Shown: positions 33,679 to 49,842 of the stretch, in pieces
Layout: every line of letters starts with the position of its first letter
Numbering within the stretch: position 1 is the first letter of the stretch
Assembly: GCA_965213705.1 (NCBI GenBank)
Contig: OZ243913.1
Span: forward strand, 1,184,001-1,248,000
DNA: 64,000 nt
Origin: Trueperaceae bacterium
GTDB lineage: Bacteria > Deinococcota > Deinococci > Deinococcales > Trueperaceae
Reading direction: 5' to 3'
Translations under genes and position numbers: made by a program
Notes under the pieces: generated by a model
Database searches by the model: none
Seen by the model: only the letters and a program-made list of their open reading frames with translations
What the model was told of the DNA's origin: nothing

Positions 33679-35781
33679 GTGAAAGCTACCGAGGCCAACT
33701 TCCTGGAGTTTCTTAAGAAGTCACCTCAGTTCGTCATCCCCATCTACCAGCGCACCTACAGCTGGACCGAACGCGAATGCCGCCAACTCTGGGACGATAT
33801 TTTGCGCACCGGCGACAACGACGCCGTCTCGGCCCACTTTATCGGCTCGGTCGTCTACATCGAGAAGGGACTCTACCAAGTCTCGAGTCAAAAGCCCCTC
33901 TTGGTCATCGACGGCCAACAGCGCCTGACCACCATGATGCTGGTCCTAGAAGCCCTGGCCCGGCAACTCGGCGAGGGTGAACCGGTCGACGGCTTCTCGG
34001 CCAGAAAGCTGCGCAACTACTACCTGCTCAACCCGCTCGAGGACGGCGAGCGAGCCTTCAAGCTGTTGCTTACCCAAACCGACAAGGACAGCCTGCTGGC
34101 CGTGGTGCAGCAGCGACACCTGCCCACAGAGCACTCATTCCGGTTGATAGAGAACTTTGCGTTTTTCGAACAACAAGTCAGGGGGTTGCGGCAGGACTTT
34201 GTCGCGCTTTGCAAGGGCCTCGCCAAACTTGTCATCGTGGATGTCTCCTTGAGCCGCGAGCAAGACAATCCCCAACTCATCTTCGAGAGTATGAACTCGA
34301 CCGGCCGCGAGTTGAGCCAAGCCGACCTCATTCGCAACTTTATCCTTATGGGCCTGGAGCCCGCCCACCAGACCCGGCTCTACGAGGACCATTGGCGGCC
34401 GATGGAGCTGGCGTTCGGTCAGGAAGCTTACGGTGCGCACTTCGACAGCTTTATGCGGCACTACCTCACGGTCAAAAGTGGTGACATTCCCAACGTCCGG
34501 CAGGTCTACGAGGCGTTCAAGACCCACGCCCGCACCCCCGTGGTGGCCGAGCGGGGTGTGGACGCGCTGGTCGCCGACATCCGGGCTTACGCCGACCACT
34601 ACTGCGCGATGGCGCTGGGCAGAGAAGCTGACAAAGACTTGGCGCTCGCTTTCCAAGACCTGCGCGAACTGCGGGTCGACGTGGCTTATCCGCTACTCCT
34701 CGAGCTGTACCACGACTACGCGGACGGGACGCTACCCAAGCCGGACTTTGTGCAGGCCGTCCGCCTTGTCGAGGCTTATGTTTTCAGGCGCTCTATCTGC
34801 TCGATTCCCACCAACTCGCTCAACAAGACGTTTGCCACCTTCGGCCGGACACTGAAGAAAGACCGCTATCTGGAAAGCGTGCAGGCGCAACTGCTCTTAC
34901 TACCTTCGTACCGGCGCTTTCCGCTCGACGAGGAGTTTGAGCGCGAAATCAAGGTGCGCGACCTTTACAACTTTCCGCGTCGCAGCTACTGGCTGCGACG
35001 GCTCGAGAACTTCGGCCGCAAGGAGCGAGTGCCCGTCAACGAGTACACCATCGAGCACATCCTGCCGCAAAACGAAAAGTTGTCCGGTAGCTGGCGGGAA
35101 GCGCTCGGCTCCGACTGGCAAAGTCTTCAAAAGACGTATTTGCACACCCTCGGCAACCTCACCTTGACGGGTTACAACTCCGAATACGGCGACCGGCCGT
35201 TCGTTGAAAAACGTGACATGCCCGGGGGGTTCAAGGAAAGTCCGCTTCGGTTGAATGAAGGTCTGGGTGCGCTCGCTACCTGGGATGAAACGGCTATCCG
35301 AGCACGAGCCGAGCGGCTCGCAAGCCAAGCCGCCAGGGTATGGGGCGCGCCGACGCTGACCCCGGAAGTGCTGGCGGCTTACCAGACTCAGGGTGCGCCG
35401 AGCCTGGGCTATAGCTTGGACGACCATCCGTATTTGGTCTCTGGTCCGATGCAACCCATCTTCGAGGCGTTTCGCCAAGAGGTGCTGGCTCTTGACCCGG
35501 TGGTGACCGAGGAGATTTTGAAGCTTTACGTGGCTTATAAAGCCGAGACAAACTTCGTGGACGTCGTGCCACAAGCTAAGCGGCTGCGTTTGTCTTTGAA
35601 CCTGCCCTTCCCGGACATCTACGACCCCAGGGGCCTGTGCAAGGACGTGTCAAACGTCGGGCGCTGGGGGAATGGGGATGTGGAGGTCGGTCTCTGCGAG
35701 CTTGCCGAGCTACCTTACGTGCTGGGGTTGGTGCGGCAGGCGTTTGAGAAGCAGATGGGGAATAGCGAGTTGGTGGGGTGA
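33679..35781 (+). CDS. gmrSD: GmrSD-type (type IV) restriction endonuclease, DUF262 + DUF1524 + C-terminal DUF5655-like domain
   Basis: IPIYQRTYSW, IDGQQRLTT, IFESMNSTG, HNH-like TIEHILPQ / LGNLTL..YNS. Confidence 0.92.
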   Translation: MKATEANFLEFLKKSPQFVIPIYQRTYSWTERECRQLWDDILRTGDNDAVSAHFIGSVVYIEKGLYQVSSQKPLLVIDGQQRLTTMMLVLEALARQLGEGEPVDGFSARKLRNYYLLNPLEDGERAFKLLLTQTDKDSLLAVVQQRHLPTEHSFRLIENFAFFEQQVRGLRQDFVALCKGLAKLVIVDVSLSREQDNPQLIFESMNSTGRELSQADLIRNFILMGLEPAHQTRLYEDHWRPMELAFGQEAYGAHFDSFMRHYLTVKSGDIPNVRQVYEAFKTHARTPVVAERGVDALVADIRAYADHYCAMALGREADKDLALAFQDLRELRVDVAYPLLLELYHDYADGTLPKPDFVQAVRLVEAYVFRRSICSIPTNSLNKTFATFGRTLKKDRYLESVQAQLLLLPSYRRFPLDEEFEREIKVRDLYNFPRRSYWLRRLENFGRKERVPVNEYTIEHILPQNEKLSGSWREALGSDWQSLQKTYLHTLGNLTLTGYNSEYGDRPFVEKRDMPGGFKESPLRLNEGLGALATWDETAIRARAERLASQAARVWGAPTLTPEVLAAYQTQGAPSLGYSLDDHPYLVSGPMQPIFEAFRQEVLALDPVVTEEILKLYVAYKAETNFVDVVPQAKRLRLSLNLPFPDIYDPRGLCKDVSNVGRWGNGDVEVGLCELAELPYVLGLVRQAFEKQMGNSELVG

Positions 35782-35801
35782 CGCGCCAAGGAGACAAGAC
35801 A

Positions 35802-36221
35802 ATGGAAGAACGTCTCAGTGCGCTGGCCGCGTTCCTACCCCGGTTCGAAGAGCCTGACTTCGCCTTTGGGGAATGGAGTCAACCCGCCACCGTGGAACCC
35901 GGCGTGATGGTCATGCCCTACTACGCCTACAGCGACACGGCCAACACCTTTGTCGAGATGGTTTACGAGTTCGACTGGATTGTTGCCGACCTCGACTGGC
36001 CCAGTTGGAAAGGCACGCCCGAAGCGACCGAGCTGCGCGACGACCCGGAAAAGCTGGCTCAGGCAACCCTTGGGCAGCTGGCAAAGCTTCTCACGGTGCT
36101 GGTTCGCCAGGACCGCTTTGTCGAAGGGGCGCTCGCCGGGGCTTACGAGGCTGGCCTCCTTACCGGGATTGTTCAGCGGGCCGCTTGGCTCGAGGTGGAA
36201 ATGACCGGAAACCAGACATAA
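35802..36221 (+). CDS. DUF6508-like protein
   Basis: PYYAYS..FV....DW..W..LLTVLVRQDRFVEG.L. Confidence 0.7.
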   Translation: MEERLSALAAFLPRFEEPDFAFGEWSQPATVEPGVMVMPYYAYSDTANTFVEMVYEFDWIVADLDWPSWKGTPEATELRDDPEKLAQATLGQLAKLLTVLVRQDRFVEGALAGAYEAGLLTGIVQRAAWLEVEMTGNQT

Positions 36222-36496
36222 ATTGCTTTCCGAAGGTTTTTAATCTTTCTCGTATTTGTAGCCGAGGGCGAACGAGCGCCTCACCATGCCCGCGGCAACT
36301 TAGCGAAGACCCAACACTGACGACGGCTGCTCACAAGGCGCGTGTTATTCTTTCCAGAAGGCCATAATGCCCAAATACCGAGGAAACAAAAAAGGTAGTC
36401 GACCGAGCCCTAGCGGCTTCTCGAGGTGTGATGTCGACGCTGCTCAAGTGGAAAAGTTTGGAGATACTGGGTGCCCGTTGAGATAAAAAGCGTGTC

Positions 36497-38911
36497 ATGG
36501 CGATAAAAAAGACCGAACTCTACAGCTCGCTCTGGGAAAGCTGCGACGAACTGCGCGGCGGCATGGACGCGTCTCAGTACAAAGACTATGTGTTGACGCT
36601 GCTCTTCATCAAGTACGTCAGCGACAAGTACGCCGGGGTGCCCTACGCGGCCATCACGGTGCCGGAAGGTGCGAGCTTTGCCGACATGGTTGCCTTGAAG
36701 GGCAAGACCGACATCGGCGACCAAATCAACAAGAAAATCATCGGCCCGCTGGCAAATGCCAACCAGCAGTTGTCCCAGTCCGACTTTCCGGACTTCAACG
36801 ACCCCGTCAAACTCGGCAGCGACAAGGAAATGGTCGAGCGCCTGAGCAACCTCATCGGCATCTTTCAGCGGCCTGCTCTGAACTTCAGCAAAAACCGCGC
36901 CGACGGCGACGACATCCTCGGCGACGCTTACGAGTACCTCATGCGTCACTTTGCCACCGAGAGCGGTAAGAGCAAGGGACAGTTCTACACCCCCGCCGAG
37001 GTCAGCCGCATCATCGCGCAAATCGTTGGCATCAAAGACGCGCAGACCAGCAGCGGCACTACCGTGTACGACCCCACCTGCGGCTCGGGCTCGCTGCTTT
37101 TGAAAGTGGCCGACGAGGCCGCTACTCGGGTCACGCTCTACGGGCAGGAAAAAGACGCCGCCACCTCGGGCTTAGCGCGCATGAACATGATTTTGCACGA
37201 CAACTCGGAAGCGTTGATTGTCCAGGGCAACACTCTCGCCGACCCGAAGTTCAAAGACGGCACCGTCCTCAAGACGTTTGACTTCGTGGTCGCCAATCCG
37301 CCCTTTAGCGACAAGCGCTGGAGCACCGGGCTCAATCCCCTTGAAGACCCCTTCGAACGCTTCAAACATGACGGCGCGCCGCCCGCCAAGCAAGGAGACT
37401 ACGCTTATCTGCTCCACATCATCCGCTCGCTCAAGAGCACCGGCAAGGGGGCGTGCATCTTGCCGCACGGCGTGCTGTTCCGGGGCAACGCCGAGGCCGA
37501 CATCCGCCGCAACCTGGTGCGCAAGGGCTACCTCAAGGGTGTTGTCGGACTACCCGCCAACCTCTTTTACGGCACCGGCATCCCCGCCTGCATCGTCGTG
37601 GTGGACAAAGAGCATGCGCACGGCCGCACGGGCATCTTTATGGTTGACGCGTCTCGAGGCTTCAGCAAAGACGGCAACAAGAACCGCCTGCGCGCGCTGG
37701 ACATCCACAAAATCGTGGACGTGTTCAACCGGCAGGTGGAAGTGCCCAAGTACGCCCGCATGGTGCCCTTTAGCGAAATAGAGAAGAACGAGTACAACCT
37801 CAACATTCCGCGCTACATCGACAGCCAGCAAGAAGAGGACGTGCAGGACATCGAGGGGCACTTGAAGGGCGGCATCCCCCGCGCCGACGTCGACGCCCTC
37901 GAGCTCTACTGGCAGGTCTGCCCGGCGCTCCGTGGTTCGCTGTTCAGGGACAAGCGCCCCGGCTACGTCGAACTGACCGTTGGCAAAGACGCCATCAAGC
38001 CCACCATCTTCGAGCACGAGCAGTTCGTCACCTTCACCTGCACCATGAGCAACCTGTTCGAAACCTGGCAAGCGCGGAGCAGCGAGAAACTTAAAGCCTT
38101 GGAAGCAGGCTGCCAACCCAAAGAAGTCATCACCGAGTTGGGCGAAGACCTGCTCGAGCATTACCAGAACAAGCCCCTCATTGACCCGTACGACGTTTAC
38201 CAGCACCTCATGGATTACTGGGCCGAGACCATGCAAGACGACCTTTACCTGATTGCCGCCGACGGTTGGAAGGCGGAAACCTACCGCGTCATCGAACGGG
38301 ACAAGAAGGGCAAGGGGAAAGACAAGGGCTGGGCCTGCGACCTCGTACCCAAACCTCTTATCGTCGCCCGCTACTTTGCCGCTGAGCAAGAAACCATAGC
38401 TAAGCTCGAGGCCGAGCTAGAAATGGTCGCCGCCGGGCTGACTGAACTGGAAGAGGAACACGGTGGCGACGAGGGCGCGTACGCAGAACTCGAGAAGGTA
38501 AACAAGGCGAACGTGACCGCACGGCTTAAGGAACTTAAAGGTATGTTCGGCGACGACTCCCAAGACGAGATGGACGCGCTGGAAGCCTGGTTGAACCTTT
38601 ACACCCGGCAGACCGACTTGAAAAAAGACCTCAAAGACGCCGAGGCCGAGCTTGACGCCAAAGCCTACGCCAAGTATCCGACACTTTCTGAAGACGCCAT
38701 CAAGACCCTAGTTGTAGACGACAAGTGGATGAACACCCTGCAACGCGCCATCTCCGGCGAGATGGACCGCATCAGCCAAACGCTGACAGGTCGTGTGAAA
38801 GAGTTGGCCGAACGCTACGAGACGCCGCTGCCTGTGCTCGGCGCGAAGGTAAGCGACCTCGAGGCCAAGGTCGGCGCGCACCTCCAAAAGATGGGTTACG
38901 CGTGGGACTAG
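36497..38911 (+). CDS. hsdM: Type I R-M methyltransferase subunit M
   Basis: GQFYTP, YDPTCGSG, VANPPF, LPHGVLFRG, NLNIPRY. Confidence 0.97.
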   Translation: MAIKKTELYSSLWESCDELRGGMDASQYKDYVLTLLFIKYVSDKYAGVPYAAITVPEGASFADMVALKGKTDIGDQINKKIIGPLANANQQLSQSDFPDFNDPVKLGSDKEMVERLSNLIGIFQRPALNFSKNRADGDDILGDAYEYLMRHFATESGKSKGQFYTPAEVSRIIAQIVGIKDAQTSSGTTVYDPTCGSGSLLLKVADEAATRVTLYGQEKDAATSGLARMNMILHDNSEALIVQGNTLADPKFKDGTVLKTFDFVVANPPFSDKRWSTGLNPLEDPFERFKHDGAPPAKQGDYAYLLHIIRSLKSTGKGACILPHGVLFRGNAEADIRRNLVRKGYLKGVVGLPANLFYGTGIPACIVVVDKEHAHGRTGIFMVDASRGFSKDGNKNRLRALDIHKIVDVFNRQVEVPKYARMVPFSEIEKNEYNLNIPRYIDSQQEEDVQDIEGHLKGGIPRADVDALELYWQVCPALRGSLFRDKRPGYVELTVGKDAIKPTIFEHEQFVTFTCTMSNLFETWQARSSEKLKALEAGCQPKEVITELGEDLLEHYQNKPLIDPYDVYQHLMDYWAETMQDDLYLIAADGWKAETYRVIERDKKGKGKDKGWACDLVPKPLIVARYFAAEQETIAKLEAELEMVAAGLTELEEEHGGDEGAYAELEKVNKANVTARLKELKGMFGDDSQDEMDALEAWLNLYTRQTDLKKDLKDAEAELDAKAYAKYPTLSEDAIKTLVVDDKWMNTLQRAISGEMDRISQTLTGRVKELAERYETPLPVLGAKVSDLEAKVGAHLQKMGYAWD

Positions 38912-39945
38912 CCGCGACGACCGAGTACCAGGGGCTTCTCGAGCGCATCTTGCAGACCTTTGAGCGGGGCCGCGCCCAGGCGCTCGGCGCGGTCAACCGC
39001 CAGCTTTTAGAGACCTATTGGCAGGTCGGGCGGTACATCGTCGAGTTTGAGCAGGGCGGCGAAGAACGCGCGGAATACGGCGCGGCGCTATTAGACACAC
39101 TCTCGAAAGACCTGAAGCTGCGCCACGGTAGGGGTTTTAGCCGCAGCAACCTCGTCTACATGCGCCAGTTTTATCTGGCCTACCCAAAAGGTGTGACACT
39201 GTCTGACGTTTTAAGCTGGTCGCACGTCATCGAACTCTTGAAGCTCGACGACCCTTTGGAGCGCGGCTTTTACGAACAACAGACGGCGCGCGAACGCTGG
39301 TCGGTGCGGGAACTCAAACGCCAAAAAGAAAGCTCGCTCTTTTTGCGCCTTGCCAGCTCCCGCGACAAGGCGGGCATCTTGCAGCTTGCCCGAGAAGGCC
39401 AAACCCTCACCCAACCCGCCGACCTCTTGCGCGAGCCCTACGTCTTCGAATTTTTGAAGGTCGCCGAGCCCGCACAGGTCTCCGAAAGCCAGCTCGAGGC
39501 CCTCCTCTACGACCACCTCCAGGCATTCTTGTTAGAACTCGGCAAAGGCTTCACCTTCGTCGGGCGGCAGGTCCGGGTGACGGTAAACAACACCCACTAC
39601 CGCGTAGACCTCGTTTTCTACCACCGCATCCTGCGCTGTTTCGTGCTCATCGACCTCAAGCTCGGCGAGGTGCAGCACGCCGACATCGGCCAGATGAACC
39701 TCTACCTCGGCTACTTCGCCAACGAGGAGAACATCGAGGGGGACGGGCCGCCCATCGGCATCATCTTTAGCCGCCAAAAAGACGAGCTTCTGGTTGAATA
39801 CGCTACCTACGGCATGAGCAGCCAGCTTTTCGTGCAGAAGTATCAGCTCTATTTGCCGGGGCGTGAGGAGCTGAGAGCCGAGTTGGAGCGGACGCTCGCG
39901 GAGGCGGAAAATATGAGTGGAGAAGGGAGAATTGAAAATGGATAA
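38902..39945 (+). CDS. YhcG/DUF1016 PDDEXK nuclease
   Basis: TYWQVGRYIVE.EQ.G..RA.YG, LSWSH, EPYVFEFL, FLLELGKGF, DLVFYH..LIDLK, GQMNLY. Confidence 0.93.
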   Translation: MGLAATTEYQGLLERILQTFERGRAQALGAVNRQLLETYWQVGRYIVEFEQGGEERAEYGAALLDTLSKDLKLRHGRGFSRSNLVYMRQFYLAYPKGVTLSDVLSWSHVIELLKLDDPLERGFYEQQTARERWSVRELKRQKESSLFLRLASSRDKAGILQLAREGQTLTQPADLLREPYVFEFLKVAEPAQVSESQLEALLYDHLQAFLLELGKGFTFVGRQVRVTVNNTHYRVDLVFYHRILRCFVLIDLKLGEVQHADIGQMNLYLGYFANEENIEGDGPPIGIIFSRQKDELLVEYATYGMSSQLFVQKYQLYLPGREELRAELERTLAEAENMSGEGRIENG

Positions 39946-41141
39946 TTCTCAATCCTCCACGCTCAACTCTCCACCGGTTCCTGCGGGGTACAAGCAGACG
40001 GAGGTGGGGGTGATACCGGAGGGCTGGGATGTGACATTTCTTGGGGATTTGTTGAGTGAGAAGCCAAGCTATGGAATAAATGCGCCAGCAGTTGCTTTTG
40101 ATTCAAGGTTTCCAACCTACTTGCGAATAACGGACATTTCTGAACAGGGTCGTTTTATTCATGAAGCAAAGGCCTCAGTTAATCATCCTGCGAGCACAAA
40201 TTATGGTTTGAACGCTGGCGACCTCGTTTTTGCAAGAACCGGGGCCAGTGTAGGCAAGTCTTATCACTATCGCTCTGAAGATGGTGAATTGGTTTTTGCT
40301 GGCTTCTTAATTCGGTTCAGTCCAGATAATCAAAAACTAATTTCCGAGTATCTCAAATTTTACGCGCAAAGTGGTTTTTATTGGAACTGGGTAAGGGTAA
40401 ACTCCATGAGGAGCGGACAACCCGGCATCAACAGCCAGGAGTATGCTTCACTGCCCGTTGCCCTCCCGCCCACCACCCTCGAGCAACAACTCATCGCCGA
40501 AGCCTTGAGCGATGCGGACGCGCTGATTAAGGGACTCGAGGGGCTCATCGCCAAAAAACTCGAGCTTAAAATAAGGTGCCATCCAGGAACTGTTACGCCC
40601 AAAGGACGGATGGGCAGTTAGAACTTTGGGCGAAATTGCATTTATAAAAACCGGAGGGCGCAACAACCAGGATAAAGTCGAAGATGGAGCGTATCCCTTT
40701 TTTGTTCGTTCCGCTACGGTGGAACAAATCAATAGTTACTCGTACGACTGTGAGGCCATCCTCGTACCTGGTGAGGGAGGCATTGGAAGCATATTTCACT
40801 ACATCAACGGTCGGTTCGACGTACACCAGCGGGTTTATGCCCTTACGCAGTTCACTCGAGAGGCATGCGGTAAATTTGTCTATTTTTATATGGTCAATTA
40901 CTTTGGTTCACACGCAATGCAAAACTCAGTGAAAGCAACAGTAGATTCATTACGTCTACCCACGTTTCAAAACTTCGAGATTTCCATGCCACCAACCCAT
41001 AAAGAACAAGTCGCCATCGCCACCATCCTCTCCGACATAGACGCCGAAATCACCGGGCTCGAGGCCAAACTCGCCAAAGCCCGTCACATCAAGCAAGGCA
41101 TGATGCAAGACCTCTTGACAGGGCGGGTGCGGCTGGTATGA
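39938..41141 (+). pseudogene. hsdS: Type I R-M specificity subunit split by a +1 frameshift near 40570
   Basis: GYKQTEVGVIPEGW; TRD1; spacer GAIQELLRPKDGW continues in another frame; ends KQGMMQDLLTGRVRLV. Confidence 0.9.
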
Positions 41142-41238
41142 GCTTGTCTGAGATACTCTCCGCACTGCGGAGACTTTGCAAACATAAACGTTTGGAGGCG
41201 AAGTTGCAGCACGTACACCAGCTCGAGGAGCCCGGCGC

Positions 41239-44200
41239 ATGAGCATCGGCCAGCCCGAACGGGTCACACAGGACCGGGTAGTCACACTTTTTCGGGACGA
41301 ACTCGGCTACACCTACTTGGGCGACTGGCAATACCGCCACGGCAACAGCAACATTGAAGAGGAGCACCTGAGCGCTTACCTGACGCGCAACGGTTACACC
41401 CCAAATCAAATCAGCGCCGCTATGCGCGAACTCCGCGGCGCGGCCGACACTTTCGGTCGCAGCTTGTACGAGAACAACTTGGCGGTCTACAAGCTGCTGC
41501 GCTACGGCGCGCCAGTCCACACCGAAGCGGGCAAGAACGCCGAAACGGTGAAGTTCATCAACTGGGAGGAGCCGGAGCAGAACGACTTCTACATTGCTGA
41601 AGAGGTCACGCTTCAAGGCGACTTCGAGCGCCGCCCCGACGTAGTGCTGTACGTCAACGGCATCGCGGTGGCGGTCATCGAACTCAAGAACAGTCGTGTC
41701 ACCGTCGGCGACGGCGTCCGGCAACTGCTGAGTAACCAGCAGCCGCGCTTCCACGCGGGCTTTTTCAGCACCGTGCAGTTCGTGTTTGCCGGCAACGACT
41801 CCGAAGGCCTGCGCTACGGCACCATCGGCACGCCGGAGAAGTATTTTCTGAAGTGGAAAGAAGACGAGGCGGACAACAGCCGCTTCAAGCTGGACAAGTA
41901 CCTTCTCAAGATGTGCGCCAAGGCGCGCTTCTTAGAGCTGATGCAAGACCTTATCGTCTTCGATGGCGGTACTAAAAAAGTGCCACGGGTGCATCAGTAT
42001 TTCGGCGTCAAGGCAGCCCAGGAGCACGTCTCAAGGTCCGAGGGTGGCATCATCTGGCACACGCAAGGGTCGGGCAAAAGCATCGTGATGGTGCTGCTGG
42101 CGAAGTGGCTGTTGGAGAACAACCCACACGCGCGTGTGGTCATCGTGACCGACCGCGACGAGTTGGACAAGCAAATCGAAGGCGTGTTCCAAGCGGCCGG
42201 CGAGACCATCCACCGCACCAGCAGCGGCCGCGACCTGATGCGCCAGCTCGGCGAGGCGACGCCGCGACTGCTGTGCTCCTTGGTTCACAAGTTCGGCCGT
42301 AAAAAGGTTGACGACTTCGAAACTTTCATCAACGAGCTGGAAGCCGCGCCCGACCCGGCGCAGGGTGAGCTGTTCGTGTTTGTGGACGAGTGCCACCGCA
42401 CCCAGAGCGGCAAACTACACCGCATCATGAAAGCGCTCCTGCCTAAAGCAGTCTTTGTCGGCTTCACCGGCACGCCCCTTCTCAAGAAAGACAAACAGAC
42501 GAGCCTGGAAGTGTTCGGCGGCTACATCCACACCTACAAATTCAAAGAGGCGGTTGACGACGACGTTATCCTCGACCTCATCTACGAAGCTCGTGACATT
42601 GACCAGCGCCTGGGTTCGCAAGCGCGCATCGACGCCTGGTTCGACGCCAAGACGCGCGGGCTCAACGAGTGGCAACGGGCCGCGCTACGTGAGCGGTGGG
42701 GCACCATGCAAAAGGTGCTCAGCTCAAAGTCGCGCATGGACCAAGTGGTCAGCGACATCGTTTTCGACTTTGGGGTGAAACCTCGTTTAAGCAACGACCG
42801 CGGCACGGCCATCCTCGTCGCCTCGAGCATCTACGAGGCTTGCAAATACCACGCGCTGTTTCAACGGACGGCGTTCCGGGGAAAGTGCGCCGTCGTTACC
42901 TCGTATAACCCTTACGCGGGCGACATCACCACCGAGGACACCGGCGCAAACACGGAAACCGACAAAGAGTTCATCTACGCCACCTACACCGAGCTTCTGA
43001 AAGACGTCGTCCCCCAACCGAACAAGACCAAGACCGAGACTTATGAGGACTGGGCCAAAGACCGCTTCAAAAACCAGCCCGCCAATATGAAGCTTTTGGT
43101 CGTAGTGGACAAGCTCCTGACCGGCTTCGACGCGCCGAGCTGCACCTACCTCTACATCGACAAGAGTATGCAAGACCACGCGCTCTTCCAGGCCATCTGC
43201 CGCACCAACCGGCTCGACGGCGACGACAAAGAGTTTGGCTACGTCGTGGACTACAAAGACTTGTTCAACAAGGTCGAGAAGGCCATCTCTGTTTACTCTT
43301 CCGAACTCGACCACAGTGTCGGCGGCACCGACCCCGAGGTGCTCATGAACGCGCGCCTTGCGAAGGGCAAAGAACGGCTGGACACCGCCCTCGAGGCCAT
43401 CCACCTCCTGTGTCAACCCGTGCCACCCCCCAAGGGTGAACTCGAGCATATCCACTACTTTTGCGGTAACACCGAAATGCCCGACGACTTAAAAGCGCAC
43501 GAGCCGCGCCGCGCCGCGCTCTACCAGGCGACAGCGGCATTGCTCAGGGCCTACGCCAACATCGCCGACGAGCTTTTGGCCGCTGGGTACAGTGACGGCG
43601 AGGTTACCCGCCTCAAAGACGCGCTCGAGCGGTATCTAAAGCTGCGCGACGTCGTCCGCCGGGCGAGTGGGGAAACGCTCGACTTAAAAACCTATGAAGC
43701 CGACATGCGGCACCTCATCGACACCTACATCGAGGCGGACGAGCCGCGAAAAATCTCTCCCTTCGACGATATGCCGCTGCTCGAGCTTATCGCCAAGACG
43801 GGCATCGCCAACGCCATCGACACCCTGCCGGAAAGTATCAAAGGTAATGAAACGGCTGTCGCCGAGACCATTGAAAACAACGTGCGCAGCAAAATCATCA
43901 AAGAGCACCTGAACGACCCGACTTACTACGGGCAGATGTCTAAACTTCTCGACGAAATCATCGCCAACCGCAAGGCCAAAGCCTTAGAGTACGAGGCGTA
44001 CCTGGCTCAGGTCGCCGAGCTGGCCCGCCGCGTAGAAGCAGGCCAAGCCGACGACACTCCGGAACGGCTTAACACGCCGGGGCTACGCGCGCTCTACGGC
44101 AGCCTGGGTCAGGACGAACACCTCGCCCTACAAGTTCATGAGACGGTGATGCGGGTCCGCCCCGACGACTGGCGCGGCACCGACACCCGCGAGAAGGTTA

Positions 44201-44340
44201 TCAACGCGCCATGTTGGACATCTTGCACCATGAGGCCGAGGTCGAGCGGCTTTTTCTCATCATCGAAAAGCAAAGGGAATACTGATGCCGCGACTCAAAC
44301 TCGGCGACGTCACGGTGGACGTGGTGCAAAAAGATATTAA
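41239..44340 (+). CDS. hsdR: Type I R-M restriction subunit R (apparent 1-bp deletion near 44204; ancestral stop at 44285)
   Basis: RPDVVLYVNG..IELK, WHTQGSGKS, DECHR, FTGTP, LLTGFDAP. Confidence 0.95.
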   Translation: MSIGQPERVTQDRVVTLFRDELGYTYLGDWQYRHGNSNIEEEHLSAYLTRNGYTPNQISAAMRELRGAADTFGRSLYENNLAVYKLLRYGAPVHTEAGKNAETVKFINWEEPEQNDFYIAEEVTLQGDFERRPDVVLYVNGIAVAVIELKNSRVTVGDGVRQLLSNQQPRFHAGFFSTVQFVFAGNDSEGLRYGTIGTPEKYFLKWKEDEADNSRFKLDKYLLKMCAKARFLELMQDLIVFDGGTKKVPRVHQYFGVKAAQEHVSRSEGGIIWHTQGSGKSIVMVLLAKWLLENNPHARVVIVTDRDELDKQIEGVFQAAGETIHRTSSGRDLMRQLGEATPRLLCSLVHKFGRKKVDDFETFINELEAAPDPAQGELFVFVDECHRTQSGKLHRIMKALLPKAVFVGFTGTPLLKKDKQTSLEVFGGYIHTYKFKEAVDDDVILDLIYEARDIDQRLGSQARIDAWFDAKTRGLNEWQRAALRERWGTMQKVLSSKSRMDQVVSDIVFDFGVKPRLSNDRGTAILVASSIYEACKYHALFQRTAFRGKCAVVTSYNPYAGDITTEDTGANTETDKEFIYATYTELLKDVVPQPNKTKTETYEDWAKDRFKNQPANMKLLVVVDKLLTGFDAPSCTYLYIDKSMQDHALFQAICRTNRLDGDDKEFGYVVDYKDLFNKVEKAISVYSSELDHSVGGTDPEVLMNARLAKGKERLDTALEAIHLLCQPVPPPKGELEHIHYFCGNTEMPDDLKAHEPRRAALYQATAALLRAYANIADELLAAGYSDGEVTRLKDALERYLKLRDVVRRASGETLDLKTYEADMRHLIDTYIEADEPRKISPFDDMPLLELIAKTGIANAIDTLPESIKGNETAVAETIENNVRSKIIKEHLNDPTYYGQMSKLLDEIIANRKAKALEYEAYLAQVAELARRVEAGQADDTPERLNTPGLRALYGSLGQDEHLALQVHETVMRVRPDDWRGTDTREKVINAPCWTSCTMRPRSSGFFSSSKSKGNTDAATQTRRRHGGRGAKRY

Positions 44341-44998
44341 GAACATTCACTTGAGCGTCTACCCGCCCGTGGGCCGGGTGCGCATTTCTGCGCCTGAGCG
44401 GATGGACTTGGACACCATCCGCGGCTTCGCCATCGCCAAATTGGGTTGGATCAAAGAGCAGCAGCGCAAGCTGCAAGCGCAGCAGCGTGAAACCCCGCGG
44501 GAGTACCTGGACCGGGAAAGCCATTATGTTTGGGGTAAGCGTTACCTGCTCGACGTCGCCGAGCACGACGGACCCGCTAAGGTAGACCTCGAGCACAGTA
44601 AGCTGGTGCTCTGGGTACGACCGGACGCCTCCGACGAAGCAAAGCAGGCAGCGGTCGAAAGCTGGTACCGCGAGCAGCTCAAAGAGGCGGTTCCCTCCTT
44701 AATTGCCAAATGGGAGCCCATGTTAGACGTAAAAGTGGAAAAATTCTTCGTACAGCGCATGAAGACCAGGTGGGGCAGTTGCAATCCGGGGTCAAGAAAT
44801 ATTCGGCTCAACACGGAGCTAGCGAAGAAGCCGCCCGAGTGTCTCGAGTATATCGTCGTGCATGAGATGGTTCACCTGCTCGAGCCTACGCATAACGACA
44901 GTTTTGTTGGGTTGATGAACCAGTATCTGCCGAAGTGGGCGTATTTCAGAGGAATGTTGAATAAACTTCCGGTGAGGCATGAGGACTGGTCTTACTAA
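44285..44998 (+). CDS. M48/YgjP (DUF45) metallopeptidase associated with type I R-M
   Basis: MKTRWGSC, YIVVHEMVHL.E..H. Confidence 0.92.
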   Translation: MPRLKLGDVTVDVVQKDIKNIHLSVYPPVGRVRISAPERMDLDTIRGFAIAKLGWIKEQQRKLQAQQRETPREYLDRESHYVWGKRYLLDVAEHDGPAKVDLEHSKLVLWVRPDASDEAKQAAVESWYREQLKEAVPSLIAKWEPMLDVKVEKFFVQRMKTRWGSCNPGSRNIRLNTELAKKPPECLEYIVVHEMVHLLEPTHNDSFVGLMNQYLPKWAYFRGMLNKLPVRHEDWSY

Positions 44999-45444
44999 AA
45001 ATTTTACCAAATCTCTGTACTTCACCTCTTTCTAGCGACCCCTTCAAACGAGACTGCCCGCAAGCGTCGACGCCGTGACCGTCCACGGCTTGGGCCGCTG
45101 CACCTTGTACCGCTACCTGGGATAGCTCCCTGATTGGAATACTGGAAACGGCGCAATTTTCATCTAAGCTCGGAAAGAATGGTGCTGTAGATGATTGAAG
45201 ATTTATGCCTTACCTGACTACCCCGGAAATCGTGTTGCCGTGCAACCAATACAAAGGGGAAGCCTACAAAGGCTAGGGCGTACATCCCCTAAACATACAA
45301 GATGTGCTATTCTAACGTTGCTTGTACGCGATATTGAGACTTGAACGAAGACATAGGCACTTGAGCGGTCCCACCCCGCGCTGATAAAGGCCGAAGCCTC
45401 CAAGAATCACCGTCGTGGACTGCGAATCTAGTGGAGGTGTTTTC

Positions 45445-46446
45445 ATGTTCCCCCTCGAAACGAGAGACCCTTACAGTCCCGACTCACCTTTTCCAGGAAA
45501 GTTTCAAATACTTTCGCTCGACGGCGGTGGTCTAAAGGGTGTTTACTCAGCGGCCGTTTTAGCGGCGTTTGAGGACGACGAGCAAGTAAGTATCGCTGAC
45601 CATTTCGACCTTATTGCTGGCACCTCCACGGGTGGCATCATCGCTTTGGCATTAGCTAGTGGGCTGAGCGCCAAGAAAATTGTTGAGTTCTATGAGCGGT
45701 ATGGGCTGGTTATTTTTCCCCGGCTGCGCTTTGGTTGGTGGAACCGCTTTTTCTCACACGGGTATAAGCAGGAACCCCTGAAGGATGCCCTGGTAGAAAC
45801 CTTTGGTGAGCACAAAACCATAGCCGATCTAAAAAAACGTGTGGTCATTCCCAGCTTTAATTTAGAGGAAGGGGCAGTCTATATTTTTAAAACACCCCAT
45901 CATTCGCGCTTCAAACGAGACGGTAAAGCCCCACTTTGGCAAGTAGCTCTCGCTACGAGCGCAGCGCCGACCTATTTTCCTGCCAGCACCCACTTAGAAG
46001 GTCTCCGCCTCATAGACGGCGGGGTGTGGGCAAATAATCCTTCTTTGGTGGCGGTGCTCGAGGCCAAAAGTGTACTGGGTGCGTCACTGGAAAACATCTA
46101 CGTTCTAAGTTTGGGGACGACAAAAGATTTGGTTAACAGACCTCTGGATTTAGATACGGGAGGACTAAAACAGTGGGCTGAGCCTGCGGCAGACGTCATT
46201 ATGCAAGCGCAGTCGACGGCCGTAAACAACCATCTCTTGCACCTGCTCCCGCGCGAAAACACAACCCGTTTAGACATGCTCGTTCCCGAGGGCATATTCA
46301 AGCTGGATCAAATCGACTATGCCCGTCTCAAAGCTAAAGCCCGTCACACAAGCCGCCACGACTGTCCCAAAATTCAACCCTTCTTGACCCACAGACCTAC
46401 GCCTTACCGACCCTTCAAAAAAGGAGATACCCATGTTAGCTATTAA
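45445..46446 (+). CDS. Patatin-like phospholipase, CBASS effector (CapV-like)
   Basis: LSLDGGGLKG, GTSTGG, ATSAAPTYF, DGGVWANNP; directly upstream of a CD-NTase. Confidence 0.92.
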   Translation: MFPLETRDPYSPDSPFPGKFQILSLDGGGLKGVYSAAVLAAFEDDEQVSIADHFDLIAGTSTGGIIALALASGLSAKKIVEFYERYGLVIFPRLRFGWWNRFFSHGYKQEPLKDALVETFGEHKTIADLKKRVVIPSFNLEEGAVYIFKTPHHSRFKRDGKAPLWQVALATSAAPTYFPASTHLEGLRLIDGGVWANNPSLVAVLEAKSVLGASLENIYVLSLGTTKDLVNRPLDLDTGGLKQWAEPAADVIMQAQSTAVNNHLLHLLPRENTTRLDMLVPEGIFKLDQIDYARLKAKARHTSRHDCPKIQPFLTHRPTPYRPFKKGDTHVSY

Positions 46447-47626
46447 AACCATGACACCTGTTCAAGCGCTGGTGGAAGCACTGGAGATCCCCGACTCTGC
46501 GTATGAAGCGGCGGCAGACCGTTACCGGGACCTTGGCGAATGGTTGCATGACGAGGCCAAAGCGAAGAGCGCCCTTTTCGACCCGGAGGTTCGTTCACAA
46601 GGCTCGTTCCGCCTTGGGACAGCCAATAGACCGTGGAAACGCGAAAGCTATGACCTGGATTTTGGCTGCACGTTCAAACGTGGGGTAGAGAAGACCGATT
46701 TCACCCAGGAGCAGGTGAAACGGCTTCTCGGCAGCGATTTGGAAGCGTACCGCCGTGAACGCGGCATTCACGATGAACTCGAAGAAAAACATCGTTGCTG
46801 GCGGCTGAACTACCAGGATCGTCTTTTGTTCCATATGGACGTCGTGCCGAGTATCCCTCACGATGAAGTCACACGCCGACAGCTTCAGGGAAGCATGACC
46901 AACACCGGGTTCGACATTCGCCTGGCACACGAGGTCTCAGAATTTGCGGTCGCAATCACGGATGACAGGCACCTCCAGTACCGACGGTTGACGGCTGATT
47001 GGTTGGTCAGCAATGCTGAAGGCTACGCCTTGTGGTTCGAGTGGCGCGTGCGCCAAGCACAAGAGGTGATGAAATCTATAATTATGAACAGGGGCGTAGC
47101 GAGCATTGCTGATTTACCCACCTATAAGTGGAAGACGCCGCTTCAACAGTGTGTGCAGGTTCTCAAGCGCCATCGCGATGTCATGTTCGAAAACGACTCG
47201 GACATCAAACCTCCTTCAATTATCCTTACCACCTTGGCGGCTAGGGCATACGAGGGAGAAGCGGATTTGCAGGCAGCCCTAGGAAATATCCTGGCGAACA
47301 TGGAGGGGTTCGTAAATACAACTTATCCCAGAGTTCCCAACCCTGTGAATCCGAGTGAAGATTTTGCCGACCGGTGGGCCACAAAAGAGGGACGTGAGTT
47401 GCAGCTCGAGCAAAACTTTTGGCTGTGGCTCGCACAAGCCAGAAGTGACTTCGCCATTATTACCTCGTCCGGCAGCACAGATGTTATTGCCGAGCAGGCG
47501 TCGCAGAAGTACGGGGTTCACCTGGACCAGCAAACCCTAGATGGACTCGTTAACGTAGTACCCAGCGTTTCAGCACCGGTCAGACCTTACAAGATAACGC
47601 AAGCGCCCAAGCCGTGGTGCCGTTGA
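46433..47626 (+). CDS. cGAS/DncV-like nucleotidyltransferase (CD-NTase, clade G-like)
   Basis: SQGSFRLGT..YDLD, EKHRCWRL.Y, FHMDVVP, LKRHRD, PSIILTTL, NPVNPSEDFADRW. Confidence 0.92.
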   Translation: MLAIKTMTPVQALVEALEIPDSAYEAAADRYRDLGEWLHDEAKAKSALFDPEVRSQGSFRLGTANRPWKRESYDLDFGCTFKRGVEKTDFTQEQVKRLLGSDLEAYRRERGIHDELEEKHRCWRLNYQDRLLFHMDVVPSIPHDEVTRRQLQGSMTNTGFDIRLAHEVSEFAVAITDDRHLQYRRLTADWLVSNAEGYALWFEWRVRQAQEVMKSIIMNRGVASIADLPTYKWKTPLQQCVQVLKRHRDVMFENDSDIKPPSIILTTLAARAYEGEADLQAALGNILANMEGFVNTTYPRVPNPVNPSEDFADRWATKEGRELQLEQNFWLWLAQARSDFAIITSSGSTDVIAEQASQKYGVHLDQQTLDGLVNVVPSVSAPVRPYKITQAPKPWCR

Positions 47627-48279
47627 CAGTCGATTATCAAGCGGTAGGCTTGCAAAACTTCCTGCAAGCCTACCCGCGTATGGCGGTCAGACCGACTAAA
47701 CGCCAAGCACTGTTGCTGGAGGGGCAGTTCGACTTCACGGCCGCGGCTGACGAACACAAGGCCATCACGGATAGCTACCAGCTCCGCATCTACGTGCCAC
47801 TTAAGTTCCCCAGAGAAATTCCATTGGTACATGAGACACGAGGTCGCATTCCGAGAACGGGCCAGTACCACGTCAATTCTGATGGCTCACTTTGTCTAGG
47901 TTCACGCCTCCGGTTACTCCAGTTGATTGCCACATCCGCAACGCTGACCGGGTTTGCTGAACACTGCTTGATTCCATATTTGTTTGCTGTTTCATACAAG
48001 CTCCAACACGGAGGAGCACTTCCCTTCGGGGAACTGGCGCATGGCCTACCTGGTGAGCTTGTGGACTATGTGGAACTTTTCGGCCTTCAGACGACAGACC
48101 AGGCGCGAGCCACTTTGCAGTATCTTGGAATGAAGAAAAGGAAGGCCAACAAACGTCCCTGCCCTTGTGGCTGTGGTCGCCGGTTGAGCCAGTGCCGATT
48201 CAACAACAAGGTGAGAAAGTTTAGACGGTTGGCAGAAAGAAGCTGGTTTAGGTCGGTTGCGAACATAAACAATAGATAG
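47614..48279 (+). CDS. Prokaryotic E2-fold protein with C-terminal SEC-C-like Zn motif
   Basis: Y.L.I..P..FP...P, HVNSDGSLCLG (E2 catalytic Cys context), CPCGCG.....C. Confidence 0.8.
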   Translation: MVPLTVDYQAVGLQNFLQAYPRMAVRPTKRQALLLEGQFDFTAAADEHKAITDSYQLRIYVPLKFPREIPLVHETRGRIPRTGQYHVNSDGSLCLGSRLRLLQLIATSATLTGFAEHCLIPYLFAVSYKLQHGGALPFGELAHGLPGELVDYVELFGLQTTDQARATLQYLGMKKRKANKRPCPCGCGRRLSQCRFNNKVRKFRRLAERSWFRSVANINNR

Positions 48280-48618
48280 ATTGAGCATTTACATCTACCC
48301 GTGGGAATCCGTTCTATTGGTACGTCTCCAACGTCATATCAAAAGGCCGTTACGCGGCGACAAATCCGACTGGGCCACCCCTATCAAAGTGCGTATCATA
48401 ATGTCCTCTCTGTTACGCACTCTCCTCGTCTTCTGCCTCAAGGACTCTCTTCCGAAGGACCCGAGCTACGCCTCAACGGTAAGTGCCTCAGCCCCAGCCC
48501 AGCGCCGGTGAGTCAGGGGGTACATTTGGAGAGAAACTCCAGGCTTGTTGAACTAGAAAGTTTCGGTTGTCGCCACAGCCAACGTTTCAAAAAAAGCTCG
48601 TTTTTGCTACCATGTCCT

Positions 48619-49122
48619 ATGACCCAAGTCGAGCTAGGGCAAAAGATTCACATGTTTCTACGCTTTCACGACTCGCTTGCCGCGGTGGTCAAAGACTCTC
48701 GCGCCTGGCGACAAGTGCAGCGCGGCCGGGAGCACAACCTGACTCTTTACGAAGCCGAACTAACGTCGCTGGGCCTAGAGCCGAGTCCGCTACTGGAAGA
48801 GCATCCCGCCTACCTCGCCTTTCGTGAAGCCGCAGTCCAAAACCGCTACGTCGACCCTGACAAAAACAACCTCGTCGAGCTGGGTGAGTGCCGGGCGGTC
48901 GACTCCAAAGCGGTCATGGACGTCAGCGGTGACGACATAGCTTTTGTGGACGTGAGCATGGTTCACCGCTACAGCCTTTATGTCGACGTGACGACCGGCA
49001 ATATCTACGCCAACGACCCAAACCCCGGTTCAGACGGCACATATCGGTTTATAAGCGACGAGTTTTTGTCCCCCAAGTGGCGAAAGAAGGCAGACGTCGT
49101 AGTTGCTGCGCATAAAGAGTAG
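48619..49122 (+). CDS. Hypothetical protein (167 aa)
   Basis: Leaderless TACCAT-5-ATG; host-like codon usage. Confidence 0.6.
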   Translation: MTQVELGQKIHMFLRFHDSLAAVVKDSRAWRQVQRGREHNLTLYEAELTSLGLEPSPLLEEHPAYLAFREAAVQNRYVDPDKNNLVELGECRAVDSKAVMDVSGDDIAFVDVSMVHRYSLYVDVTTGNIYANDPNPGSDGTYRFISDEFLSPKWRKKADVVVAAHKE

Positions 49123-49180
49123 CTACCCTAAAACAACTTTTCCTTACTATGCTATCCTTACAGTGTAAGTAAGGAGAAAC

Positions 49181-49420
49181 ATGGAGAAGGAAGCAACCCT
49201 CACAAGCAAAGGCCAGCTCACCCTACCCGCCGACATCCGCCGCGCCCTGCGGCTCGAGCGCGGCGATAAGGTCGTCTTTTCAACAGAAGGCGACACGGTG
49301 ACTTTGCGCCGAGCGCCCAAAGCCAACACTTTCGCCGCCTATGCAGGACGCTACCGCGAAGGCGCGGGAAAGACCCGCGAAACCATCAACACCGAACTGC
49401 GTGAGTTGCGCGGCGAGTGA
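49181..49420 (+). CDS. AbrB/MazE-family antitoxin
   Basis: TLTSKGQLTLPADIRRAL.L..GD.V. Confidence 0.92.
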   Translation: MEKEATLTSKGQLTLPADIRRALRLERGDKVVFSTEGDTVTLRRAPKANTFAAYAGRYREGAGKTRETINTELRELRGE

Positions 49421-49842
49421 CCGCGGTCGACAGCAACGTGTTTGTCGGCTTGCTGGCAGGCACCGAACATGAAACCGAGGTGGCGCAGCGAGCCTTAGAG
49501 GGGGCAGCTACGGAAGGCCCACTCATCCTCTGCCCGGCGGTTTACTCCGAGCTGATGGCGATGCCCGGCATGAGCGAAGAAGAGTTGGACGTTTTTGTAG
49601 AAGCTAACGGCCTCACTGTGGAGTGGCTGTTGGATCCTGAAGTGTGGCGAGCGGCTGGACAGGCTTACGCTGCTTATGCGACGCGCCGTCGCCGGCAGAA
49701 AGGGGACGAGGGGCCGCGGCGCATCCTGGCCGACTTTGTTATCGGCGCGCACGCGACGTTGGCAACAGGTAAGCTTCTTACGCTCGACCCGCAACTCTAC
49801 CGAGCAAACTTTGTGGGCTTAGAGGTGGTCGTACCAGCTTGA
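49417..49842 (+). CDS. PIN-domain (VapC) toxin
   Basis: AVDSNV, VYSEL, ADFVIGAHA, LLTLD; 4-bp overlap with the antitoxin. Confidence 0.92.
   Translation: MTAVDSNVFVGLLAGTEHETEVAQRALEGAATEGPLILCPAVYSELMAMPGMSEEELDVFVEANGLTVEWLLDPEVWRAAGQAYAAYATRRRRQKGDEGPRRILADFVIGAHATLATGKLLTLDPQLYRANFVGLEVVVPA

Follow-up and report, generated by a model that had tools for sequence, protein, structure and literature searches.

What does a stand-alone E2-like enzyme do with an immune cyclase that has no glycine near its C-terminus? The question is raised by a 64,000-nucleotide (nt) stretch of DNA from a Trueperaceae bacterium (the window in what follows; GenBank assembly GCA_965213705.1, contig OZ243913.1, positions 1,184,001 to 1,248,000), which carries at 45445-48279 an operon of the type that signals against phages through cyclic oligonucleotides (CBASS). 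As a first-pass annotation of this DNA had claimed, three overlapping genes are present, all intact and on the + strand: a CapV-like, patatin-like phospholipase effector of 333 amino acids (aa) (45445-46446), a clade G CD-NTase (CdnG, 397 aa, 46433-47626), whose gene shares 14 nt with the patatin gene and 13 nt with the next one, and an E2 (221 aa, 47614-48279). The patatin gene starts with ATG, with a GGAGG site 8 nt upstream, and the E2 gene with GTG. PADLOC models matched the E2 (E=6e-83), the cyclase (E=5e-112) and the phospholipase (E=1.7e-105), agreeing with the proposed E2-only subtype; the latter was also matched by NCBIfam CBASS_lipase (285 bits, cut-off 200) and Pfam Patatin, and contains the motifs GGGLKG, GTSTG and DGG. 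The reported absence of nearby E1 and JAB genes was borne out, since Pfam and PADLOC searches of the flanking genes in the window found neither. Their supply in trans is unlikely, as the complete-looking (98%) host genome holds one ThiF-family gene, about 250 kb from the operon, and gave no Prok-JAB match anywhere. With an intact CD-NTase, an adjoining cell-death effector, a stand-alone E2 of the UBC fold and no E1 or JAB gene in the operon, this locus is a real, intact E2-only (type II-short) CBASS. Its cyclase ends in KITQAPKPWCR and its last glycine is residue 371 of 397, so the last 25 or so residues are indeed free of glycine.

The tail itself provided the first clue. Among 120 homologues of the window cyclase, 79 end in [KR]PW followed by 2-6 residues; Pro-Trp is invariant in these 79, and the residue after Trp is variable (R in 27, C in 9, H in 8, M in 6, others in the rest). 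In the window this putative tag reads K393-P394-W395-C396-R397-stop (47609-47626, + strand). The same picture emerged from the side of the E2, which we call E2-SEC-C after the SEC-C-type motif in its own C-terminal part. We collected 104 distinct E2s, 93 of them with enough upstream DNA to be evaluated, and in 87 of these 93 loci the upstream gene ended in P[WYF] plus 2-9 variable residues (84 strict tags and 3 looser P[WYF] tags); two of the six untagged loci are broken cyclases that still carry the tag. The background frequency was 4 of 525 open reading frames (ORFs) in 41 other loci. An earlier E2-centred set of 84 loci had given an adjacent cyclase, by a distance rule, in 74, with PW endings in 72; the rest comprised seven loci without upstream DNA, one missed by the distance rule and two without a cyclase. 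The distance from the tag to the C-terminus is always about 9 residues or less, and in no case do fewer than two residues come after the aromatic (79 CdnG and 112 PycC proteins, the latter described below, and 65 distinct tails). Two trivial explanations were discarded. The motif is not a by-product of gene overlap, given that it is kept where the genes merely abut (locus L085) and varies at the protein level, by K/R and W/Y/F exchanges besides synonymous changes. Nor is it a structural motif of CdnG, as close CdnG relatives end in HKFYG (24) or GGRFG-type tails (11) and unrelated folds carry KPW; a tail-free tree of 119 CdnG proteins forces at least three changes of tail class. Because tag and E2 co-occur, we consider it highly probable that the tag is the recognition site of the E2, as the tail counts in homologues and loci predict.

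The tag also occurs on unrelated folds. A Chryseobacterium plasmid encodes an effector of the pyrimidine cyclase system for antiphage resistance (Pycsar), then a Pycsar cyclase (PycC) ending in RPWLKRS, then an E2-SEC-C, and 112 of 120 homologues of that PycC end in [KR]P[WYF] plus 2-9 residues, a count that concerns the proteins alone. The plasmid's PycC and E2 are WP_181715769.1 and WP_181715770.1. On a Runella plasmid, a protein of the metallo-beta-lactamase (MBL) fold ending in KPWQRG lies directly upstream of an E2-SEC-C, and the same position is occupied elsewhere by three CD-NTases of two other profile groups, ending in KPWTPSV, KPWVSLEDD and KPYGRHE. Because a Pycsar cyclase, an MBL-fold protein and other CD-NTase clades carry the tag beside E2-SEC-C, the tag, judged from sequence, follows the E2 rather than the cyclase fold. 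The KPW tail is thus likely to be a portable tag which the E2 reads and probably cuts or ligates, and bacteria may have grafted it onto several CD-NTase clades, Pycsar cyclases and MBL enzymes. A search that started from the cyclase found CdnG in 8 of 401 genomes; four of these combined KPW with E2-SEC-C (one being the search centre), and in the other four an NTF[YH]G-type tail accompanied a short Serratia-type E2. Four loci on viral contigs divided into two with KPW and E2-SEC-C and two long untagged fusions; an E2-profile search of viral contigs returned no true E2-SEC-C locus and one spurious match. Scanning 301 genomes of one phylum with the Pycsar profile PDLC00767 gave 0 matches, and no E. 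coli match was found for the DNA of a related Vibrio operon. Two plasmid relatives linked to ThiF/JAB end in KPQGFGGAE and KPDGFA.

Several observations on these partners stand by themselves. The Runella locus (NC_015694.1; L095, 1899-6594) holds, besides the KPW-tailed MBL gene (protein WP_013921736.1) and E2-SEC-C (WP_169705258.1), a gene for a membrane protein and another two MBL genes; it is an MBL operon with an E2 only, for which we found no counterpart in the literature covered. Two-domain Pycsar cyclases ending in PSKSFAE (L141, 4779-6347, - strand) and PSSSWAT (L142, 3380-4927) lie upstream of divergent E2-SEC-C genes and adjoin TIR-type genes. Four PycC homologues (P0482, P0484, P0495 and P0498) end in H[RS]FHY[EG], resembling the HKFYG class of CdnG, so that the CdnG and PycC folds have these alternative tails in common. 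Longer, untagged CdnG/PycC relatives (L098, L152, L154 and L156; 458-562 aa) end in an extra domain, which we take to be AGS-C-like, suggesting that this domain and the E2 tag are alternative control modules.

We then asked what kind of protein the third gene encodes. Its AlphaFold2 model reached a predicted local distance difference test (pLDDT) value of 95, and the structural neighbours in VIA, all of which concerned residues 1-144, were headed by the UEV domain of Tsg101 (Z 9.5), Vps23 (Z 8.5), UFC1 (Z 7.8) and the E2 of Serratia (8HSB_B; Z 7.5, root mean square deviation 4.8, 130 residues aligned). Foldseek likewise listed UBC/UEV/RWD-type proteins, at E>=0.0014 and none at E<=0.001; a sequence search of the PDB gave weak rows only, and the copies of Pfam and NCBIfam used gave no match. 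On this model, the third gene product has a UBC/UEV fold, as the first-pass annotation had presupposed, in residues 1-143 (47614-48042, + strand). The HVNSDGSLCLG motif singled out in that annotation holds H86 and C94, which, like H143, are present without exception among 121 aligned close relatives; 19 divergent relatives all keep C94 and H143, and 18 of them keep H86. A profile of these 19 aligned with four Serratia-type short E2s in hhalign (92.6%), with H86 and C94 opposite Serratia H87 and C101, and H143 corresponds by register to H152. The position equivalent to Serratia K159 is V150, and no acceptor Lys is conserved across the family. The rest of the protein (48043-48279, + strand) is a helical domain with the other motif noted before, CPCGCG-RRLSQ-C, i.e. 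C183-x-C185-x-C187-x6-C194, whose four Cys are present in 121 of 121 aligned proteins, in a strongly basic context (17 K/R and 1 D/E in residues 171-221). Divergent relatives have the canonical CxCxS-x6-CH and are named SEC-C by RefSeq. The variant with Cys for Ser and without the last His was found in 209 of 270 stored E2s and the canonical form in 25. Pfam SEC-C (PF02810) did not match the window E2 but is carried by its Atlas matches, and direct matches to SecA peptides were weak (E 0.27-0.32). We predict that the tail binds zinc and that Cys187 for Ser, together with loss of the last His/Cys, is a ligand swap. The family comprises 1,398 clusters at 50% identity (E<=1e-10), is sparse in the phylum of the window (2 clear matches in 301 genomes), and is catalogued in several PADLOC E2 models and in an Atlas cluster, 'Type II CBASS E2 protein/SEC-C motif', that carries PF26395 and PF02810.

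The closest solved relative of the cyclase is VcCdnG (9WOO; best PDB match, E=5e-120). Against a protein that matches 9WOO at 391/396 residues, the window cyclase shows 191 identities over 392 aligned residues, and G57/S58, D74/D76/D136, the lid N194/Y198 and K245/R248/S262/E309/F311 are kept; the sole change among the mapped catalytic and lid residues is K119 to H. Because of this conservation, the predicted product is 3'2'-cGAMP, which VcCdnG makes and which activates the Cap5 nuclease, according to the accessible text of its description (PMC12804361). That text reports a flexible VcCdnG C-terminus, which in 9WOO reads KPWFKQ, treats CdnG and Cap5 in vitro, and contains 'E2 enzyme' only in the title of a reference. 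A Vibrio gigantis plasmid protein 391/396 identical to 9WOO sits between HNH-SAVED and E2-SEC-C genes, and from this near-identical operon we infer an E2 gene at the V. cholerae locus as well, suggesting that the likely regulator of the solved VcCdnG was missing from its study.

The action of the E2 on the tag was considered in the light of the E2-CBASS of Serratia marcescens. As far as the available part of that preprint describes it (bioRxiv 10.1101/2022.05.25.493364), the Serratia E2 is a His/Cys protease that cuts E407 off the cyclase, takes up G406 as a thioester, stores the cyclase on K159 and assembles activating chains of cyclase; H87, C101 and H152 are needed for cleavage, linkage and defence, G406R abolishes linkage, G406V and G406L block it, and defence is lost in G406R, C101A, H87A and H152A. 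For the window family the reading we prefer is that Pro-aromatic recognition, with a permissive P1 residue, drives cleavage and transpeptidation without ATP, because the catalytic residues are kept, the aromatic lies in the register of Y405 and there are always residues beyond it. The latter fits a leaving group past the scissile bond, as in Serratia Y405-G406-E407. We hold this reading with doubt and confidence evenly divided. In such a scheme, the E2 would likely recognise the C-terminal Lys-Pro-Trp of the cyclase, and the His86/Cys94 pair would probably cut the tail just past the residue after Trp, giving a thioester without ATP; a lysine of either a second cyclase or a target protein would then accept the trimmed cyclase, by which cyclase activity would be switched, and the 3'2'-cGAMP made would activate the patatin, which would destroy the membrane of the infected cell. 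The SEC-C-type domain, placed where the Serratia E2 has its Lys159 lid loop, may be a gate opened by a phage cue, a sensor role suggested by its position and charge. The complete proposal, a one-protein, ATP-free, glycine-independent ligase with a portable [KR]P[WYF]-xx tag and the SEC-C domain as its phage-sensing gate, is tentative, and as a whole we think it rather less probable than its negation.

Several points weigh against the favoured scheme. The strongest objection is that Arg, commonest of all residues at the position equivalent to Gly406 (27/79), is the very substitution that kills the Serratia system, so that either the cut is made at another position or the S1 pocket has to be different. 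With V150 in place of K159, the auto-inhibitory isopeptide of Serratia is left without an obvious acceptor. The list of structural neighbours is headed by UEV domains, which read peptides and are catalytically dead, although Z values of 7.5-9.5 fail to separate these from UBCs. Activation of patatins by 3'2'-cGAMP is not established in the literature covered, as far as the accessible text goes. Most tagged loci are close kin found with one profile and are not independent; the Pycsar and MBL links consist of one KPW-tagged locus each, and two further Pycsar loci end in PSxS[FW]Ax instead. Finally, an orphan E2-SEC-C (L003, 4974-5618) lies between integrase-type genes, without a tagged partner, although it may be a relic.

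Four other explanations accommodate parts of these data. The conserved His/Cys dyad, together with the lack of a conserved acceptor Lys, would also be expected of a pure protease that cleaves the tag behind Trp or one residue further on and then hydrolyses the thioester, trimming alone switching the cyclase on or off with no conjugate formed. Clade G CD-NTases are activated elsewhere by phage proteases that cut an internal loop (PMC12991175, in its available part), and ligation is prevented by bulky residues in the place of Gly in the systems described in the accessible text of PMC10097602 and bioRxiv 10.1101/2022.05.25.493364. Nevertheless, loss of 1-6 residues from a flexible tail is no obvious switch for three unrelated folds, and the invariant H143 corresponds to the His by which the Serratia E2 controls isopeptide exchange; we therefore regard simple trimming as unlikely.

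The structural matches point in another direction, since the UEV domains of Tsg101 and Vps23 bind proline-rich peptides, and a Pro-aromatic tag with free downstream sequence would suit such a reader. The E2 could then hold the cyclase by its KPW tail non-covalently and let it go or cluster it once a phage cue reaches the SEC-C/basic domain. Invariant H86, C94 and H143 would be superfluous in a pure reader, nor would such a reader explain why the tag is always so close to the C-terminus with at least two residues past its aromatic, and this explanation too we find improbable. The unconstrained residue at the scissile position and the existence of the orphan E2-SEC-C could instead mean that the tag only docks the partner, the E2 Cys acting on another substrate, e.g. 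a phage protein, as a sensor-protease that activates the cyclase allosterically. This we judge quite improbable, for in both type II architectures described in the accessible text of the same two sources the E2 Cys receives the cyclase C-terminus, and the orphan, lying between integrase remnants, may be a relic. The suggestion of the first-pass annotation that conjugation may differ from the known chemistry held as regards the terminus without Gly, unlike that of Serratia E2-CBASS, but failed in its specific route through Cys396 after trimming of Arg397, to which we give scarcely any credence: the register matches Serratia Y-G-E and Cys is small, yet Cys occurs there in only 9 of the 79 CdnG homologues, 8 of 65 locus tails and 4 of 112 PycC proteins, Pro-Trp being what the alignment of C-termini shows as invariant.

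Around the operon, the window contains a defence island (33679-49842) with a type I restriction-modification system (hsdM 36497-38911; hsdR 41239-44340), a YgjP peptidase, the CBASS and an AbrB/MazE-PIN toxin-antitoxin pair. The hsdS-like gene at 39917-41141 is split into two ORFs (39917-40621 and 40626-41141), probably by a frameshift. The island also holds an ORF at 38725-39945, which we take to be PDDEXK/YhcG-like, and another that is presumably a DUF262-type nuclease-like protein. Directly 3' of the E2 gene, a 273-aa ORF (48301-49122) had no PADLOC match and no significant Pfam match, and its membership of the operon is unsupported. In related loci, 45 of 49 upstream neighbour ORFs were scanned and comprised 32 SAVED effectors and 9 patatins, whereas 36 of 64 downstream ORFs included 2 patatins; none of these 81 scanned ORFs matched ThiF/JAB. 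Some loci are incomplete or rearranged: L004 (4979-5275) is a truncated E2-SEC-C remnant, the copy in L089 (3998-4516) is interrupted by IS30, and the CdnG and E2-SEC-C pairs of L086, L088 and L092 have their effector on the opposite strand or none annotated nearby.

Searches of open-licence PMC and bioRxiv found no paper on E2-SEC-C or the Pro-Trp tag, although the motif may already appear in figures or supplements of sources available in part: the logo drawn from 593 type II-short sequences in 10.1101/2022.03.31.486616, the Serratia preprint's Extended Data Fig. 5, and Fig. 4D and S5 of the mLife paper. As far as these searches show, the E2-SEC-C class is catalogued (PADLOC, Pfam) but mechanistically unstudied. 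The earlier view of a poorly characterised subtype thus stands for the E2 and has to be tempered for the cyclase, as the characterised VcCdnG has a KPW tail; likewise, the possibility that known systems already combine a zinc tail with a KPWxR-type end is touched by that tail and by the catalogued E2s with SEC-C, the E2 itself being without a study found. What is new here is the portability of the tag across CBASS, Pycsar and an MBL locus. As a large E2 family pairs with a Gly-less Pro-aromatic tag, the accepted E2-CBASS mechanism cannot apply unchanged. If our proposal is true, E2 enzymes would perform ubiquitin-like acyl transfer with no small residue at the C-terminus, which would be a new chemistry for them and a possible short-tag ligase tool, and bacterial immunity would have a third conjugation code, with a frequency close to that of the Serratia type where both could be counted (4 versus 4). 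The tagged Pycsar and MBL partners offer a direct route to test one regulator gating unrelated immune enzymes.

Compared with known systems, the window operon belongs to type II-short CBASS, and neither to the Serratia subtype nor to Cap2/Cap3 type II. It shares with Serratia E2-CBASS (SmCdnG and SmE2, 8HSB/9KKB) a clade G cyclase, a stand-alone E2 without E1 or JAB, the UBC fold and a His/Cys/His triad in register. The Serratia tail is aromatic-Gly-x, and in the accessible text of the mLife paper only the terminal Gly is conserved, highly, in E2-CBASS cyclases (PMC12948482), whereas the window family has [KR]P[WYF]-xx and no conserved Gly near the C-terminus. The Serratia E2 has 162 aa and a K159 lid loop, against 221 aa, no K159 acceptor and an added SEC-C helical domain here, and the effectors are 2TM-SAVED and patatin, respectively. 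VcCdnG-Cap5 (9WOO) has the same N/Y lid and KPW tail as the window cyclase but a Cap5 nuclease in place of the patatin. Relative to SEC-C (PF02810; the SecA metal-binding domain), the E2 tail keeps the CxCx[SC]-x6-C spacing in a basic context, while in the window subgroup the canonical Ser is Cys187 and the last His/Cys is lost. E2-like genes adjoining Pycsar-like cyclases are noted in the available part of a 2026 preprint (10.64898/2026.08.12.744502). A conceptual parallel is Cap2/Cap3 type II, in which CD-NTases, Pycsar cyclases and MBL proteins likewise rely on a single ubiquitin-like module that acts through a C-terminal tail, the E2-E1/JAB module being shared by CBASS, Pycsar and MBL as described in the accessible parts of PMC11601596 (see also PMC10097602 and bioRxiv 10.1101/2022.03.31.486616); E1, ATP, JAB and a terminal Gly/Ala are all required there, whereas the module described here consists of an E2 alone and a Pro-aromatic tag.

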